This document shows positions 31,035 through 61,963 of a stretch of 64,000 nucleotides of DNA, in pieces (positions within the stretch are counted from its first letter, which is position 1; every line of letters begins with the position of its first letter). The stretch lies in assembly GCA_028717225.1 (NCBI GenBank), contig JAQUOF010000001.1:30322-94321 (forward strand), in the 5' to 3' direction. Under the pieces are notes generated by a model, which was not told the DNA's origin, made no database searches, and saw only the letters and a list, made by a program, of their open reading frames with translations. Made by a program: the position numbers and the translations under genes. Source of the DNA: Patescibacteria group bacterium (GTDB lineage Bacteria > Patescibacteriota > Patescibacteriia > UBA2591 > JAQUPP01).

Positions 31035-31060
31035 CGGGATGAACTTGCCCCGCCACTTTT

Positions 31061-31131
31061 GGGCCCGTAGGTAAGTGGTATACCGGTACATTCGCATTGT
31101 ACAGTCCCGAGTTCGATTCTCGGCGGGTCCA
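31061..31131 (+). tRNA. tRNA-Ala (anticodon CGC) with G3:U70, embedded in an 11-bp flanking inverted repeat
   Basis: Acceptor GGGCCCG/CGGGTCC (G3:U70 Ala identity pair), anticodon stem GTACA/TGTAC, loop TTCGCAT, T-arm CCGAG-TTCGATT-CTCGG; flanked by CCCCGCCACTT (31048-31058) and AAGTGGCGGGG (31134-31144). Confidence 0.8.
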
Positions 31132-31189
31132 TAAGTGGCGGGGTGAAGTAATACGCAATATTTTGTCCCGATTTTGTTAAAATTCAAAA

Positions 31190-31438
31190 ATGTTTAACAT
31201 TTATATTTTAAAATCATTGAAATTTGGTAAATACTATATTGGCAGTTGTGAAGATATCACAACGAGATTAAAACAGCATAACACTGGAAAGACAAAATCA
31301 ACAAAAAGATTTATGCCATGGGAGCTTGTTTATAAAGAAAGCTTTAATACTCGAAGTGAAGCTGTAAAAAGAGAGCAACAATTAAAATCATGGAAAAGTA
31401 GAAAGGCCTTAGAAAAATTAATAAAGGAATATTTTTAA
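31190..31438 (+). CDS. Stand-alone GIY-YIG nuclease-domain protein
   Basis: GKYYIGSCED...R..QHN...E..LK motifs of the GIY-YIG fold; 82 aa with no additional DNA-binding domain. Confidence 0.75.
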   Translation: MFNIYILKSLKFGKYYIGSCEDITTRLKQHNTGKTKSTKRFMPWELVYKESFNTRSEAVKREQQLKSWKSRKALEKLIKEYF

Positions 31439-31448
31439 GACGACAGTT

Positions 31449-31543
31449 CTCCCGATTTTGTTCCCGCCTTTAGCGGGATTACAAAATCGAGGATCCACGA
31501 TATCACCCTAAATTATAAATTTGAGTGATATCGGGAGATTCTG
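31449..31543 (+). ncRNA. Candidate structured RNA element: two adjacent stem-loops with nested inverted repeats between the GIY-YIG and MazG-like genes
   Basis: SL1: CGATTTTGT-[TCCCGC-CTTTA-GCGGGA]-T-ACAAAATCG; SL2: CGATATCAC-19 nt loop-GTGATATCG; outer CTCCCGAT/ATCGGGAG pairing; neither has a canonical U-tract. Confidence 0.3.
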
Positions 31544-43397: not shown

Positions 43398-43571
43398 TTA
43401 TCCTACTGCTTTCCAGAACAAAAGCATGCCAACAGAAAATAAAAAATACCCAGCTACTATCCCTATTTTTTTTAATAATTTATATTTTTTTCTTCTCCGT
43501 TGAGAATTAAAACTTGTTGCCAATATCCACATTCCTATTACTATAACAATAATAGAACGAAGAATATACAT
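43398..43571 (-). CDS. Small (57 aa) two-TM membrane protein, below the ORF-track size cutoff
   Basis: Strong SD (AGGGGGAAATAATG), upstream GGGGTTGACG-N17-TTTAAAT promoter, downstream hairpin; translated by eye. Confidence 0.35.
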   Translation of the reverse strand: MYILRSIIVIVIGMWILATSFNSQRRRKKYKLLKKIGIVAGYFLFSVGMLLFWKAVG

Positions 43572-43645
43572 TATTTCCCCCTATTTTTATTTTAAAGTTC
43601 GGTTTGTATTTGACTGTCATTATTTAAACATATTTTAAAGGTTTC

Positions 43646-43770
43646 GTCAACCCCCACACCAAACTTAGCGTTTGATTTACGTATCGCAAAAATCAGAAGG
43701 CGAAGCCGCTTCGCTTTTATCCCCTTATAAAAAAAGCCTCGCATTGAGTTGTGGTGTGGGGGTCAACCCC
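43646..43770. mobile_element. MITE-like composite inverted-repeat element (GTCAACCCCCACACC ... GGTGTGGGGGTCAACCCC) carrying an outward promoter; paralog of 61814..61963
   Basis: Terminal inverted repeats CCCCCACACC/GGTGTGGGGG with GTCAACCCC at both ends; internal GC hairpin GCGAAGC-C-GCTTCGC; sits in a divergent intergenic region. Confidence 0.45.
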
Positions 43771-45998: not shown

Positions 45999-47080
45999 GA
46001 ATATTTTTTAATTTGTTCGCTGCCTTTCTGAATTAATTCTTCGCGAAGATTTTTGCTTTCTATAATTTGGTTCATAGTCGCAGCCATTTCTTCTATGTTT
46101 TTAGGATTAAAATATAAAGCGGCTGAACCGTAAATTTCAGGCAGGGGTTGATGTTTTGAGGCAATTACCGGCAAACCGAATTTCATTGCTTCCAAACCGG
46201 GCAGGCCAAAACCCTCAGACAGAGAAGGGAATACATAAGCCAAACCATTTTTATAAAGCCAGGCTAATTTTTCATCAGAAGCCTGACCGGGGAAAATAAC
46301 TTTTTCTTCCAATCCTAATTCTTGGGTTAATTTTTTTAAATTGTGATAGAAATAATCCATTTTCCCGACCAAAATTAAATGAATTTCCGGGTGTTTGGAT
46401 AAAACAATTTTAAAAGCCTTGATTAAACGTTCTAAATTTTTGTGTGGATAAGCATTACCGACGTACAATAAATAGGAATTTGGTCCGCCAGCTGGCGGAT
46501 TGGAATTTGGAATTTCCACTGACGCAAGCGCCGCTTCATAAGTTACAGAGATTTTTTTCGGATTAATTTTGTATTGTTTCACAATTGAGTCTTTTATAAA
46601 GTTAGAAACCGTAATAATTTTTTCCGCCCGGTATAAAGCATTCTTAATAATCAAGTAATAAATAATTTTTTTGAAATAAAAAGTTAATTTACCGTGGGTT
46701 GAAGCTTTTGGTGTTGTTTGATTATGAGTCAAATCATGAATTGTCACCACAAACCGGCCGAAGTAAAACAGGGGAACATTAAAGTGAAGAAAGTGAACCA
46801 AATCAAGGCGTTGAGAGGCGAGTTGCTTGGGAAATAAAACCTGCTCTTGCCAGGAATACCAAGGATAATCGGCTAAAACCTTGTGAAAATGAGGGTTTTG
46901 AGGCTGATATAAATCAAAGTTATCCTTACGGAGGAAAATAAAATAATCGTCTTTTTGATTAGACTTTTCCAAGTTAGCAATTAGTTCCTGAGTGTAGCGC
47001 CCGATTCCTTTGCCTGTTGGGCCAAAAAATCTGGAGTCTATTCCAATTCTCATATTATTATAAAATTTAGGGGTTGACAA
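45950..47080 (-). CDS. GT4-family (GT-B fold) glycosyltransferase
   Basis: C-terminal EGFGLPGLEAMKFGLPVIAS (GT4 E-x7-E region); 376 aa; in-frame palindromic insertion encoding EIPNSNPPAGGPNS in the inter-domain linker. Confidence 0.85.
   Translation of the reverse strand: MSTPKFYNNMRIGIDSRFFGPTGKGIGRYTQELIANLEKSNQKDDYFIFLRKDNFDLYQPQNPHFHKVLADYPWYSWQEQVLFPKQLASQRLDLVHFLHFNVPLFYFGRFVVTIHDLTHNQTTPKASTHGKLTFYFKKIIYYLIIKNALYRAEKIITVSNFIKDSIVKQYKINPKKISVTYEAALASVEIPNSNPPAGGPNSYLLYVGNAYPHKNLERLIKAFKIVLSKHPEIHLILVGKMDYFYHNLKKLTQELGLEEKVIFPGQASDEKLAWLYKNGLAYVFPSLSEGFGLPGLEAMKFGLPVIASKHQPLPEIYGSAALYFNPKNIEEMAATMNQIIESKNLREELIQKGSEQIKKYSWEKCAQETEEIYKTL
46475..46515. repeat. Palindromic element copy (core 46484-46499) with GGAATTTGG direct repeats, in-frame inside the GT4 gene
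   Basis: GGAATTTGG-TCCGCCAGCTGGCGGA-TTGGAATTTGGAATTT; an identical arrangement occurs at 47894-47934. Confidence 0.85.
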
Positions 47081-51958: not shown

Positions 51959-52009
51959 GCCCCCTTAGCTCAATGGTAAATCCGCCAGCTGGCGGACTCT
52001 TAAGCAATC
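51959..52009 (+). pseudogene. tRNA-Lys-like remnant: 5' acceptor/D region plus anticodon loop, with the palindrome TCCGCCAGCTGGCGGA (51981-51996) replacing the D-stem/anticodon 5' stem
   Basis: GCCCCCTTAGCTCAATGGTA matches the first 20 nt of tRNA-Lys at 52064 (1 mismatch); ...CTCTTAAGCAAT matches its anticodon loop and 3' stem; no T-arm or acceptor 3' strand. Confidence 0.45.
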
Positions 52010-52063
52010 AATTATTATAATAAAATTAGATTTCTTTAAAAACTTAATTAGCAAATAATATAA

Positions 52064-52134
52064 GCCCCCATAGCTCAATGGTAGAGCAGTTGCCTCTTAA
52101 GCAATTGATATAGGTTCGATCCCTATTGGGGGTA
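52064..52134 (+). tRNA. tRNA-Lys (anticodon CTT)
   Basis: Acceptor GCCCCCA/TGGGGGT, D-arm GCTC-AATGGTA-GAGC, anticodon stem GTTGC/GCAAT, loop CTCTTAA, T-arm ATAGG-TTCGATC-CCTAT. Confidence 0.8.
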
Positions 52135-52140
52135 TTTTAT

Positions 52141-52215
52141 ACCTTAATTTAATGGTAAATCCGCCAGCTGGCGGACTCTTAAGCAATTGACGAAGGTCTG
52201 ATTCCTTCGGGGGTA
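52141..52215 (+). pseudogene. Second tRNA-Lys-like remnant carrying the palindrome (52160-52175) with a divergent T-arm-like hairpin
   Basis: Shares the 37-nt block AATGGTAAATCCGCCAGCTGGCGGACTCTTAAGCAAT with 51969-52005; the acceptor and anticodon stems cannot pair. Confidence 0.4.
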
Positions 52216-55569: not shown

Positions 55570-55606
55570 CTATATATTATATTAGCACAAAAAATATTTT
55601 TTGTCA
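55570..55606 (-). promoter_or_regulatory. Extended promoter GGGGTTGACAAAAAA-N-TAATAT (minus strand)
   Basis: Near-identical to the promoter at 56095-56135. Confidence 0.5.
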
Positions 55607-55640
55607 ACCCCTGTTCTGTTAATAAATATTAAATAAAAAA

Positions 55641-56094: not shown

Positions 56095-56135
56095 GAATTA
56101 AATATTAACACTTTAAATTTTTTTGTCAACCCCGT
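56095..56135 (-). promoter_or_regulatory. Extended promoter GGGGTTGACAAAAAAA-N-TAATAT (minus strand)
   Basis: TTGACA, 17-bp spacer ending GTGT, TAATAT. Confidence 0.5.
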
Positions 56136-56149
56136 TAGAAATTTAAAAT

Positions 56150-60657: not shown

Positions 60658-61782
60658 TTATTTCTCGTCGCCAGATTGTTGATCTTGAGGCTTATCTTCT
60701 TTATTATTTCTCAAAGAAAGTCCTAAACGATGGTTCTCCGGTTCTACGGAGACAACTCTAAATTTTATTTGATCGCCGATTTTAGCAATTTTGGACATAT
60801 CCGTCACCGGTTGGTCAGAAAGCTCGGAAATATGTGCTAATCCGTGAATATCAGGATCTAGTTCCACAAATAAACCGAAAGGATTTACTTTTAAAACAGT
60901 TCCCATAACCTCTTGCCCCACTTTATATTTTTCAGATACTTTAACCCATGGATCTTCCATTAATCTTCGGGTGGATAAAGAAATTTTGCCGTCTTCGGTA
61001 ATACCGATAATTTTAGCTTTTACTTTATCCCCAACGTTGATTACATTTTTGGGATGATCTATTCTTTGCCAAGCCAATTCGGAAATATGAATCAAGCCCT
61101 CTTGGCTTTTATCAAAAGTGACAAAGGCGCCAAAATCAACTATGCCGCTGATTTTTCCTTCAACCACATCGCCGACTTTGTAATTTGACAAAATAGATTC
61201 TCCGGTTGGTGCTGAAATATTTTTTTCCGAAACAATAAATTTTTCATTTTCCTCATCAACATTGATAATTCGAACAGAAAAATCCTGTCCAATATATGTT
61301 TTGAGTTTTTCCAAAATTCTGGTTTTATTGCCGCCGTCAACTCTGGGATAGTGTTCGCCACTCAAATGAGAAACGGGTAAAAATCCGGCTACTTTTCCAA
61401 AACGAATAAGAAGCCCGCCTTTATTGGCTTCTAGGGCTTTCACTTTTATCGGTTCGCCCTTTTCCATCAGTTCTATTAACTGATCCCATGCTTTTTTATG
61501 GCTGGCAAAACGAAAAGACAATTCCATTAAACCTCTTTCATTCTCCAGATCAATAACGGTTGCCGAAGTTGTATCGCCAATTTTTAAATTGGAAAATTCT
61601 CCGGATTCGTCAAAAAGTTCCGGACCACGGATAATACCGGTGGTGACTCCGTCGATGTCTAAATAAATTTCATTTCGGCCAATTTCTAAAATTTGGCCCT
61701 CAACCAAATCGCCCATCTTGGGAAGCGCTTTGGCAGATTGAAGATACTCTTTTTTAATTAATTTTGTTGTGTCGCTAATCAT
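60658..61782 (-). CDS. rpsA: Ribosomal protein S1-like (four S1 domains)
   Basis: Repeated S1 OB-fold motifs (GxVxGxV...GLxHxSE) x4; short form typical of reduced genomes. Confidence 0.8.
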   Translation of the reverse strand: MISDTTKLIKKEYLQSAKALPKMGDLVEGQILEIGRNEIYLDIDGVTTGIIRGPELFDESGEFSNLKIGDTTSATVIDLENERGLMELSFRFASHKKAWDQLIELMEKGEPIKVKALEANKGGLLIRFGKVAGFLPVSHLSGEHYPRVDGGNKTRILEKLKTYIGQDFSVRIINVDEENEKFIVSEKNISAPTGESILSNYKVGDVVEGKISGIVDFGAFVTFDKSQEGLIHISELAWQRIDHPKNVINVGDKVKAKIIGITEDGKISLSTRRLMEDPWVKVSEKYKVGQEVMGTVLKVNPFGLFVELDPDIHGLAHISELSDQPVTDMSKIAKIGDQIKFRVVSVEPENHRLGLSLRNNKEDKPQDQQSGDEK

Positions 61783-61813
61783 ATAGGATTATTATAAACA
61801 TCTTTAAAAATCA

Positions 61814-61963
61814 GTCAACCCCCTCACCTGAACGCTGATAAGCGCTTAATATCCTATTATGTTTTAATTTTTTTTACACAATAAATTAAAAATATTTTGA
61901 ATATAAACAAATAAAATTTTATATTTTAAAAATACATCAGCGTTTGGTGAGGGGGTCAACCCC
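61814..61963. mobile_element. MITE-like composite inverted-repeat element (GTCAACCCCCTCACC ... GGTGAGGGGGTCAACCCC), paralog of 43646..43770, supplying the rpsA promoter
   Basis: Terminal inverted repeats CCCCCTCACC/GGTGAGGGGG; inner inverted repeat AACGCTGAT/ATCAGCGTT around an AT-rich core; RC of the left end gives GGGGGTTGACT-N17-ATAATA upstream of rpsA. Confidence 0.45.

Follow-up and report, generated by a model that had tools for sequence, protein, structure and literature searches.

Why should the −35 boxes of two genes in a patescibacterial genome each abut a hairpin with C/G-rich tips, with the same run of guanines in front of them? The question is raised by a stretch of 64,000 nucleotides, hereafter the window (contig JAQUOF010000001.1 of the Patescibacteria group assembly GCA_028717225.1; GC content low, about 35%). 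There, inverted-repeat elements occupy positions 43646-43770 (element 1), upstream of a gene for a small predicted membrane protein, and 61814-61963 (element 2), upstream of rpsA, the gene of protein S1. A first-pass annotation of the sequence had read them as paralogous elements, akin to miniature transposable elements with inverted repeats (MITEs), that carry and seed promoters, or else as a bipartite regulatory module recognised by a specific factor. Our analysis keeps the mobility and gives up the cargo: both features are, with a probability that we would put at roughly 0.78, insertions of a foldback, MITE-like element family common in Patescibacteria, and the promoters next to them would be host DNA that survived the insertion.

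Element 1 starts with GTCAACCCCCACACC and ends with GGTGTGGGGGTCAACCCC; element 2 starts with GTCAACCCCCTCACC and ends with GGTGAGGGGGTCAACCCC. Both have perfect terminal inverted repeats (TIRs) of 10 bp, CCCCC[A/T]CACC/GGTG[T/A]GGGGG, prolonged by an imperfect extension, and at the A/T variant that element 2 shows in position 6 the opposite arm carries the compensating change. These ends, written CCCCCWCACC/GGTGWGGGGG in the annotation, are found where it had placed them and lie far above chance: the 18-mer of the right end, GGTGWGGGGGTCAACCCC, is present twice in the window against 0.00 copies expected, and GTCAACCCC seven times against 0.17, all within 43.6-62 kb. From tip to tip the elements measure 112 and 137 bp, and they hold no credible open reading frame (ORF). 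As DNA they would fold into long hairpins with a minimum free energy of −26.3 kcal/mol for element 1 (shuffled sequences −12.2 ± 2.7, z = −5.3) and −29.6 kcal/mol for element 2 (−10.9 ± 2.6, z = −7.3). When the window is scanned with Rfam 15, only tRNAs reach the gathering score and no family matches the elements; at the E-value threshold there are weak matches only, to plant miRNA precursors with long hairpins and to CrcZ.

Both elements parse as G/TCAA/(CCCCC...GGGGG)/TCAA/C. TCAA stands at either side of both copies, as a target site duplication (TSD) would, the left GTCAACCCC being composed of the flanking G, the TSD and the TIR's first four C, and the right one of the last TIR G, the TSD and a flanking CCCC. 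What looks like a direct repeat of 9 bp is, as we read the letters, a 4-bp TSD (TCAA) together with the C/G-rich tips and the CCCC flank. The consequences are best seen on the minus strand. Each element would have inserted in the TTGA of a promoter −35 box, on a G/TTGA/C target, and duplicated it. The gene-proximal TTGA, with the untouched host bases beside it, still reads TTGACN-N16/17-(−10), and the promoter would survive, now abutting the G5 tip of the element; the distal TTGA copy, beside a host GGGG, would yield the second GGGGTTGAC. Since the duplication regenerates the −35 box, the promoter would be host DNA and not cargo of the element, and the extended −35 as well as the 9-bp direct repeat would be by-products of transposition, neither a carried promoter nor a factor site. 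The duplication of TTGA may also explain why insertions in −35 boxes are tolerated, and they would persist because they are near-neutral. A promoter starting from the distal GGGGTTGACC copy was considered and discarded on inspection of the sequence, there being no −10 box at the right distance in either window element.

The left −35/−10 pairs have the sequence of a sigma-70-type promoter at element 2 and, less clearly, at element 1, which is absent from the list of a consensus scan (its second hexamer has no A at position 2) and whose TGTTTAAATAA −10 region recurs at the 47074 promoter and in L083 (retrieved loci are given here as L numbers). The spacer counts 17 nt at element 1 (TTGACG-N17-TTAAAT) and 16 nt at element 2 (TTGACT-N16-TATAAT). 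The TATAAT of rpsA ends 8 nt ahead of the ATG, a distance found again in the relative L088 (2990-3003), so that the S1 mRNA would have no leader or almost none.

Comparison of rpsA regions separates the promoter from the element. In the syntenic loci L084/85 and L088/89 (a hypothetical gene on one side, rpsA-ftsH on the other; S1 67-70% identical) the intergenic region is 54-64 bp long and the promoter reads cc-TTGTCA-N16-TATAAT, without hairpin or G-run. As the window and L088, where no element is present, align in their spacer and −10, the rpsA promoter would be older than the element, and the insertion would have hit its −35 box. The idea that the elements carry or seed promoters does not survive this comparison: the −35 consists of the duplicated TTGA and host bases, the −10 is host DNA, the element-free orthologous −35 (TTGTCA) has the same 16-nt distance from TATAAT, and the element contributes only the adjoining G-run. 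Other, unrelated inserts are present in the rpsA region of L086/87 and L090/91. Two closer relatives are occupied: L083 (S1 97% identical) has element 2 at the same site, with its right junction mutated to GGGGGCTAACCCCC, and L219 (PQQ protein 85% identical) has element 1 at the same locus, 94% identical.

How general is this arrangement? A first scan, of one genome per species with GGTGWGGGGGTCAACCCC as query, returned 82 stretches, with 38 paired elements in 35 low-GC loci, the matching left end lying 20-320 nt upstream; its high-GC matches were due to chance, inside genes and without partner end. Most of the paired loci are labelled Saccharibacteria, Paceibacterota, Parcubacteria or Moran-, Nomura-, Wolfe-, Lipton-, Nealson- and Wildermuthbacteria, all of them lineages of Patescibacteria. 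In this genome-scan set the left end reads outward GTTGAC-N-(−10) in 24 of 40 elements under a strict pattern, and the adjacent gene points away in 24/30. The scan was biased, however, in that its 18-mer demanded TCAACCCC, which made the 9-bp repeat look universal; scanning metagenomes for the TIRs only, as CCCCCACACC-N35-65-GGTGTGGGGG, corrected this. In the unbiased set so obtained, the TCAACCCC flank is present in 1 of 124 elements, and identical 4-bp flanks are found in 54 of the 108 unique low-GC elements, where shuffling of the partners gives 7.0 on average and 13 at most. No peak appears at 3 bp, five cases occur at 5 bp where 0.5 are expected, and none at 6 bp or more, so that the family peak is at exactly 4 bp. 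The duplicated sequences vary, TTTA/TAAA being the commonest, then TCAA, CAAG, TAGA, TGAA, TATA and others, including TTCA and CTTG, and the symmetrised target logo is RG/TWWA/CY. A specific preference for TTGA was considered and rejected: TTGA/TCAA make up about 10% of the flanks, which by a rough estimate is what base composition predicts among TNNA sites.

These statistics exclude soil metagenome contigs of high GC (L106, L117, L128, L145, L153, L156, L196 and L202), which hold the same 10-mer inverted pair but have GGGAGGGGGCGGGAGA-type repeats at both sides and represent a different repeat family in another organism. Typical elements also appear in bins with other labels, namely a Nanoarchaeota contig (L021, where the flanks are inverted, TTGA ... 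TCAA, and not direct) and a Gammaproteobacteria metagenome-assembled genome (L010/L025, GC 0.31-0.35), either by mis-binning or mislabelling or by a genuine spread beyond the phylum. Viral carriers found no support, the four IMG/VR matches being unrelated high-GC or giant-virus sequences.

A member of the family comprises the conserved 10-bp tip, 3-18 further complementary bases that differ by subfamily, a position 12 left without a partner, a free loop whose length runs from 6-7 nt (L020, L061) to about 300 nt (genome-scan set), and a TSD of 4 bp, rarely 5 bp. The stem covaries. Arm position 11 is Watson-Crick paired in 95% and position 13 in 93% of elements (52% and 43% after shuffling), by way of AT, TA and CG variants, and position 12 between them is mostly unpaired, as a one-base bulge, mainly T, in 45 of 151 elements or as an A.A or T.T mismatch in many others. 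With the tip counted, the paired arm has a median length of 15 and a maximum of 28. Such a pattern would favour recognition of a folded form over that of two independent protein-binding ends.

That the family moves is apparent from several sides. Three loci of genome JBAZEI (L017, L066, L070) share one subfamily. Relatives of the two window elements occur at unrelated loci of a single contig, JBAZMD010000001: the copy of L082 matches element 1 over 132 nt (86% identity), and that of L013 matches element 2 over 157 nt (80%), with flanks non-homologous to the window and different downstream genes, a 69-aa ORF and an AbrB-like gene. Interiors are found in either orientation relative to the flanks (L076 versus L078; the two L206 copies), and in tandem arrays neighbouring elements share one 4-bp spacer. 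With the family-wide TSDs and the absence at distant syntenic rpsA promoters, these copies bear out the annotation's guess of a small mobile or duplicative element. Genes themselves are hit as well. Element length plus TSD is divisible by 3 in 66/110 copies of the unbiased set, and of the 14 copies through which a frame stays open for 60 codons or more on each side, 13 are in frame, contributing "..PHT...GVGV.." peptides. The genomes of Patescibacteria are tiny and streamlined, yet they carry an abundant hairpin element, which would survive by low-harm landing, either in a −35 box that the insertion regenerates or in frame within genes.

The GGGG-extended −35 box can now be looked at in its own right. 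Five of the seven GTCAACCCC sites of the window, 43650(-), 47074(+), 55607(-), 56129(-) and 61818(-), are the −35 of promoter-like sequences (GGGG-TTGACN, a 16-17-nt spacer, a TG-extended −10), and the remaining two are the right ends of the elements; most other good promoters of the window have no G-run. The first-pass annotation had listed three further promoters of this kind at 47080, 55570 and 56095, and GGGGTTGACA is indeed present at 47070-47078(+), 55603-55611(-) and 56125-56133(-), the coordinates having been approximate. Among 646 kb of unbiased loci of the candidate phyla radiation (CPR), GGGGTTGAC has 12 sites, of which 8 are TIR tips abutting TTGAC, 1 is a distal flank and 3-4 are solo promoters. 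Most GGGG-extended −35 boxes are therefore element ends, and the motif, largely the footprint of a transposon tip, is explained without a new sigma factor or regulator.

A second hairpin class, with arms CCCCGTTAGAG/CTCTAACGGGG, often adjoins TTGAC promoters too (L005 7231-7303, L048 5440-5541, L133 4110-4191, L044, L057, L161, L172); a clean TSD is not established for it, 2 of about 8 copies checked being perfect. In the solo promoter at 56125-56140 (TTCTAACGGGGTTGACA), the 11 nt that precede TTGAC agree with the right arm CTCTAACGGGG, and this promoter is possibly a remnant of a second-class element. Degenerate tandem copies occur as well (L015, L075). The neighbouring segment 55316-56084, with two small genes that have GGGGTTGACA promoters, forms, downstream of the HU gene, an islet that varies: at 16062-16947 of L083, otherwise 86-91% identical, it is replaced by another segment of 886 bp with a 179-aa ORF and a small ORF.

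What would move such elements? Partners with the same 17-20-nt TIRs exist, and they encode only a GIY-YIG nuclease, whose role as transposase is putative. The same ends bound eight elements of 292-320 bp, each with one intact GIY-YIG ORF of 85-86 aa (UPF0213/Slx1-like). Those of L010, L048 and L079 (305-320 bp), found via the DNA pattern, have one ORF of about 85 aa each, with Pfam GIY-YIG E-values of 1e-16 to 1e-18. Six further homologues (58-77% identity) were fetched blind, via the protein; five of them (L212, L214, L215, L218, L222) have full TIRs and TSDs (CTTGA, TCAAG, CTTG, TTTA and TTTA), and the sixth, L221, has partial ends only. The right TIR of most ORF-bearing elements contains the stop codon (..GATTAG/GTGTGGGGG). 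Three inner-TIR classes hold both ORF-bearing and short members, including the largest short class, ATAACGAGC/AAACGAGC, and the same pairing of long and short is seen with a different TIR, CCCCCACCT, in L048. The ORFs are under purifying selection, with pN 0.14-0.24 against pS 0.67-0.96 (dN/dS about 0.1), and as their synonymous sites are saturated, ORF and TIRs would have travelled together for long.

The protein has 13 invariant residues, including Y5, Y16, G18, R26, H30 and E50. Modelled with a pLDDT of 94, its structure comes nearest to UPF0213 and the Slx1/HIGLE nuclease domains (TM 0.65-0.71), farther from I-TevI (TM 0.47) and UvrC (TM 0.52), and the best matches in sequence and fold together are UPF0213 BH0048 (1zg2) and the nuclease domains of Slx1 and At-HIGLE. 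Because this is the sole ORF between identical ends in the longer relatives, we infer that the family would be mobilised in trans by the stand-alone 85-86-aa nuclease, probably acting on a hairpin or cruciform form; the odds of this seem to us roughly even. The fuller proposal is that the 292-320-bp elements are autonomous transposons, that their sole enzyme is a structure-specific GIY-YIG nuclease recognising the extruded hairpin or cruciform, and that ORF-less derivatives, the two window copies among them, colonised promoters and even reading frames throughout Patescibacteria; we hold it as tentative, at slightly less than an even chance. It is this link that could be truly new. If true, these elements would be transposons of an enzymatic class new to prokaryotes and rank with the smallest autonomous ones, and a share of the widespread UPF0213/YhbQ-type proteins would receive a function. 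The link would also explain the GIY-YIG ORFs in non-intron insertions of CPR rRNA genes, whose sites are poorly conserved (PMC11270868) and which are compatible with this family.

To be sure, several facts weigh against taking the window features as insertions of one family, or against the enzyme proposed for it. The interiors of elements 1 and 2 are unrelated, their best local alignment scoring 10 against 9.5 ± 1.3 in shuffles. Only the 10-bp ends and the duplicated target are common, and the word paralogous has to be given up; literally taken, this is the lack of alignment beyond the termini that the annotation itself had named as fatal to its idea. For neither insertion was a polymorphic empty site found, the two close relatives available, L083 and L219, being occupied, and the element-free rpsA loci have diverged too far for the junction to be aligned base by base; the empty sites in relatives that had been called for are thus found as absence at more distant rpsA loci, not as exact ones. 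Promoter geometry is only modestly enriched in the unbiased set (25 of 105 elements versus 14.6% of random positions), so that the family would not be promoter-specific in general and −35 boxes would be one harmless landing class that fits G/TTGA/C. The target logo does not account for the distal CCCC flank or for the GGGG of the three solo promoters: these G-runs are either remnants of older neighbouring elements or a sign that the element prefers targets mimicking an element junction. As for the enzyme, the window holds no cognate GIY-YIG copy, its gene at 31190-31438 having other flanks. We know of no GIY-YIG nuclease that makes TIR/TSD insertions, and the cuts of the known ones leave 3' overhangs of 1-2 nt, not a 4-nt stagger.

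The strongest competitor concerns the enzyme. TIRs with a short TSD are the classical signature of DDE enzymes, and the short hairpins could be MITEs of the ordinary kind whose conventional transposase, DDE or other, has so far escaped notice, the GIY-YIG gene having been captured or having invaded without any role in transposition. Our inspection covered only about 1.5 Mb around the matches, and GIY-YIG ORFs of the family also occur with other inverted repeats or none (window 31190, L030, L143, L155, L193). We nevertheless find this explanation unlikely. It has to accommodate eight independent elements in which one ORF fills the space between the TIRs, with its stop mostly in the right TIR, as well as the purifying selection at saturated synonymous sites and the repeated pairing of ORF-bearing with short members, in three inner-TIR classes and again in L048. 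Moreover, between TIR pairs 250-4000 bp apart in those 1.5 Mb, no transposase-like gene and no larger element were found. The 1505-bp TIR pair of L206, a candidate for such an element, consists of two separate short copies around ordinary genes.

Could selection rather than transposition have placed the hairpins? Hairpin and repeated GGGGTTGAC would then be a host regulatory module (a factor site, a promoter-upstream structure, a terminator or insulator), as the annotation had conceived with its bipartite module and specific factor. In the lineage of the window this looks natural enough: the hairpin always adjoins a −35 box (both window elements, L013, L082, L083), the far-side neighbour gene is co-directional with the promoter in 28/39 cases of the genome-scan set, so that a stop to read-through is conceivable, and there is the conservation of element 1 in L219. 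Yet the flanks of the unbiased sample are variable 4-bp duplications, nearly always other than TCAACCCC; the spacing of the two GGGGTTGAC copies ranges from 21 to more than 300 nt; the loops, so different in length, are unrelated between copies; some insertions are in frame within genes; syntenic rpsA promoters do without the hairpin; and no U-tract follows the stem, nor does any Rfam family reach its gathering score. All this makes a host module very improbable. Hardly credible at all is a third idea, hairpins of the REP/BIME type (repetitive extragenic palindromes and their mosaic elements, with RAYT enzymes) or of the IS200/IS605 type, moved by an HUH (Y1) transposase that cleaves beside a conserved TTGA/TCAA: GC-rich hairpins with conserved stem bases and a variable top, tandem arrays, a base left unpaired at a constant place in the stem, a folded form as the probable object of recognition and TCAA itself, a cleavage tetranucleotide of IS608, all recall such systems, but these make no TSD, whereas here a variable 4-bp duplication is the rule, TTGA/TCAA is a small minority of the flanks, and no Y1/RAYT gene lies inside or beside any copy inspected.

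A transposed foldback family being retained, its functionally closest known systems are bacterial MITEs, with which it agrees in element size, terminal repeats, target duplication and the distribution of its copies. Correia elements produce a TA duplication and have 26-bp TIRs, −35/−10-like boxes of their own and a site for integration host factor (IHF). Like the window elements, these elements of Neisseria (CREE; Siddique et al., 2011, as cited in PMC11602168) are small (about 100-150 bp), non-coding and multi-copy, with TIRs and a short TSD, mostly intergenic, hairpin-folding and often beside promoters or contributing to them. The elements described here differ in their 4-bp TWWA duplication and in the CCCCCACACC tip. 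Unlike Correia elements, they have as −35 box the duplicated target itself, their stem covaries beyond the 10-bp tip, and their only coding relatives carry a GIY-YIG gene and no transposase of a known insertion sequence family. Rickettsia palindromic elements are palindromic repeats of 100-150 bp, without known transposase, that insert in frame within genes. The likeness lies in the in-frame copies (13/14 when ORF-embedded) and in a length that, with the TSD, is a multiple of 3 in 60% of cases; the Rickettsia elements differ in host phylum, sequence and ends, and lack a comparable TSD/TIR system or a linked nuclease gene.

On the side of the enzyme, UPF0213 (YhbQ, COG2827) and Slx1/HIGLE are nearest to the 86-aa product in sequence and fold, and Slx1 cuts branched DNA such as junctions and stem-loops (titles of PDB entries). 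Unlike Slx1, the 86-aa product has no RING/PHD domain and no Slx4 partner. Proteins of the UPF0213/Slx1 type are, to our knowledge, not recognised as mobile or as flanked by TIRs and TSDs. The genes of GIY-YIG homing endonucleases (I-TevI, Seg proteins) are similar in being selfish nuclease genes that spread in genomes, but homing enzymes have a long specific target and a separate C-terminal DNA-binding domain, without TIR or TSD. An identity with them was rejected, the 85-86-aa product being a catalytic domain only, with TIRs, variable TSDs (TTTA, CTTG, TCAA, CTTGA) and a degenerate 8-mer target. Integron attC sites, which act as folded single strands, share imperfect inverted repeats of variable length, fixed unpaired bases and arrays; they too were set aside, in that GTCAAC/GTTGAC misfits the core RYYYAAC/GTTRRRY, neither an integrase nor cassette ORFs occur, and variable TSDs make up the flanks. 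In the searchable literature we found no description of the elements: full-text motif queries gave only primer noise, and a large MITE survey mentions neither Patescibacteria nor GIY.

GIY-YIG genes in other surroundings deserve a mention. That of the window (Table 1) directly follows tRNA-Ala and has a small hairpin after its stop codon; its flanks (31167-31493) hold three CCCGATTTTGT copies, two direct and one inverted, and it may be another inverted-repeat-flanked GIY-YIG member with different ends. In L030 (880-1320) a GIY-YIG ORF lies between two copies of a tRNA 5' part, and in L218 (1390-1900) the TIR-flanked element has on each side a copy of the coding sequence for the N-terminal part of a prepilin peptidase.

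Table 1. Coordinates of the two elements, their host promoters and related features in the window
Feature	Position	Strand	Remarks
Element 1 proper, 112 bp	43651-43762		Left TIR CCCCCACACC 43651-43660, right TIR GGTGTGGGGG 43753-43762
Element 1 interior	within 43651-43762		Imperfect extended stem; loop with GC hairpin GCGAAGC-C-GCTTCGC
Element 1 left TSD TCAA	43647-43650		On the minus strand, TTGA of −35 TTGACG
Element 1 right TSD TCAA (43763-43766) and host flank CCCC (43767-43770)	43763-43770		With the last TIR G, second GTCAACCCC
Putative promoter of 57-aa membrane-protein gene	43622-43650	-	−35 TTGACG 43650-43645, 17-nt spacer, TG-preceded −10 TTAAAT 43627-43622
Predicted 57-aa membrane protein	43398-43571	-	Downstream of element-1 promoter; no Pfam match; also called, 57 aa, in L219
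Element 2 proper, 137 bp	61819-61955		Left TIR CCCCCTCACC 61819-61828, right TIR GGTGAGGGGG 61946-61955
Element 2 interior	within 61819-61955		Second stem AACGCTGAT/ATCAGCGTT, AT-rich loop
Element 2 left TSD TCAA	61815-61818		On the minus strand, TTGA of −35 TTGACT
Element 2 right TSD TCAA (61956-61959) and host flank CCCC (61960-61963)	61956-61963		
Putative rpsA promoter	61791-61818	-	−35 TTGACT 61818-61813, 16-nt spacer, −10 TATAAT 61796-61791; 11/12 consensus matches; ATG 61782
rpsA, four S1 domains	60658-61782	-	
Solo GGGGTTGAC(A) promoter, no hairpin	47070-47078	+	Upstream of 86-aa ORF
Solo GGGGTTGAC(A)-N17-TAATAT promoter	55603-55611	-	Upstream of 45-aa ORF 55531-55397
Solo TTCTAACGGGGTTGAC(A) promoter	56125-56140	-	GGGGTTGACA kept in L083
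Stand-alone 82-aa GIY-YIG gene	31190-31438	+	41% identical to the TIR-flanked ones; different flanking repeats

The elements also matter for annotation, gene callers extending ORFs into them. The public model of protein P0241 (535 aa, PQQ beta-propeller), for instance, takes as its first codon GTG 43751, which falls within the right arm of element 1; ATG 43916, with AGGAGG upstream, is the start chosen for the 477-aa PQQ homologue of L219.

Other repeats are present in the window. A perfect palindrome of 16 nt, TCCGCCAGCTGGCGGA, has 6 copies (16508, 43843, 46484, 47903, 51981, 52160) where 0.08 are expected, and looks like a second, even smaller palindromic repeat family. Three copies are inside long ORFs, bracketed by GGAATTTGG/TTGGAATTTGGAATT repeats; the copy at 46484 lies between the two domains of a GT4 glycosyltransferase, and one copy, in the 5' untranslated region of the PQQ gene, is conserved in L219. 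Two fragments resembling tRNA-Lys(CTT), at 51962-52010 and 52140-52215, flank the real tRNA-Lys (52064-52134), and in both TCCGCCAGCTGGCGGA takes the place of two strands, the 3' one of the D-stem and the 5' one of the anticodon stem; they may be pseudo-tRNAs that were disrupted, or else tRNA genes that bear an insertion and escape tRNA finders. Finally, an inverted repeat of 20 nt, CCCCGCCACTTTTGGGCCCG/CGGGTCCATAAGTGGCGGGG (31048-31067 and 31124-31143), encloses tRNA-Ala (31060-31132) and lengthens its acceptor stem by about 12 bp per side.

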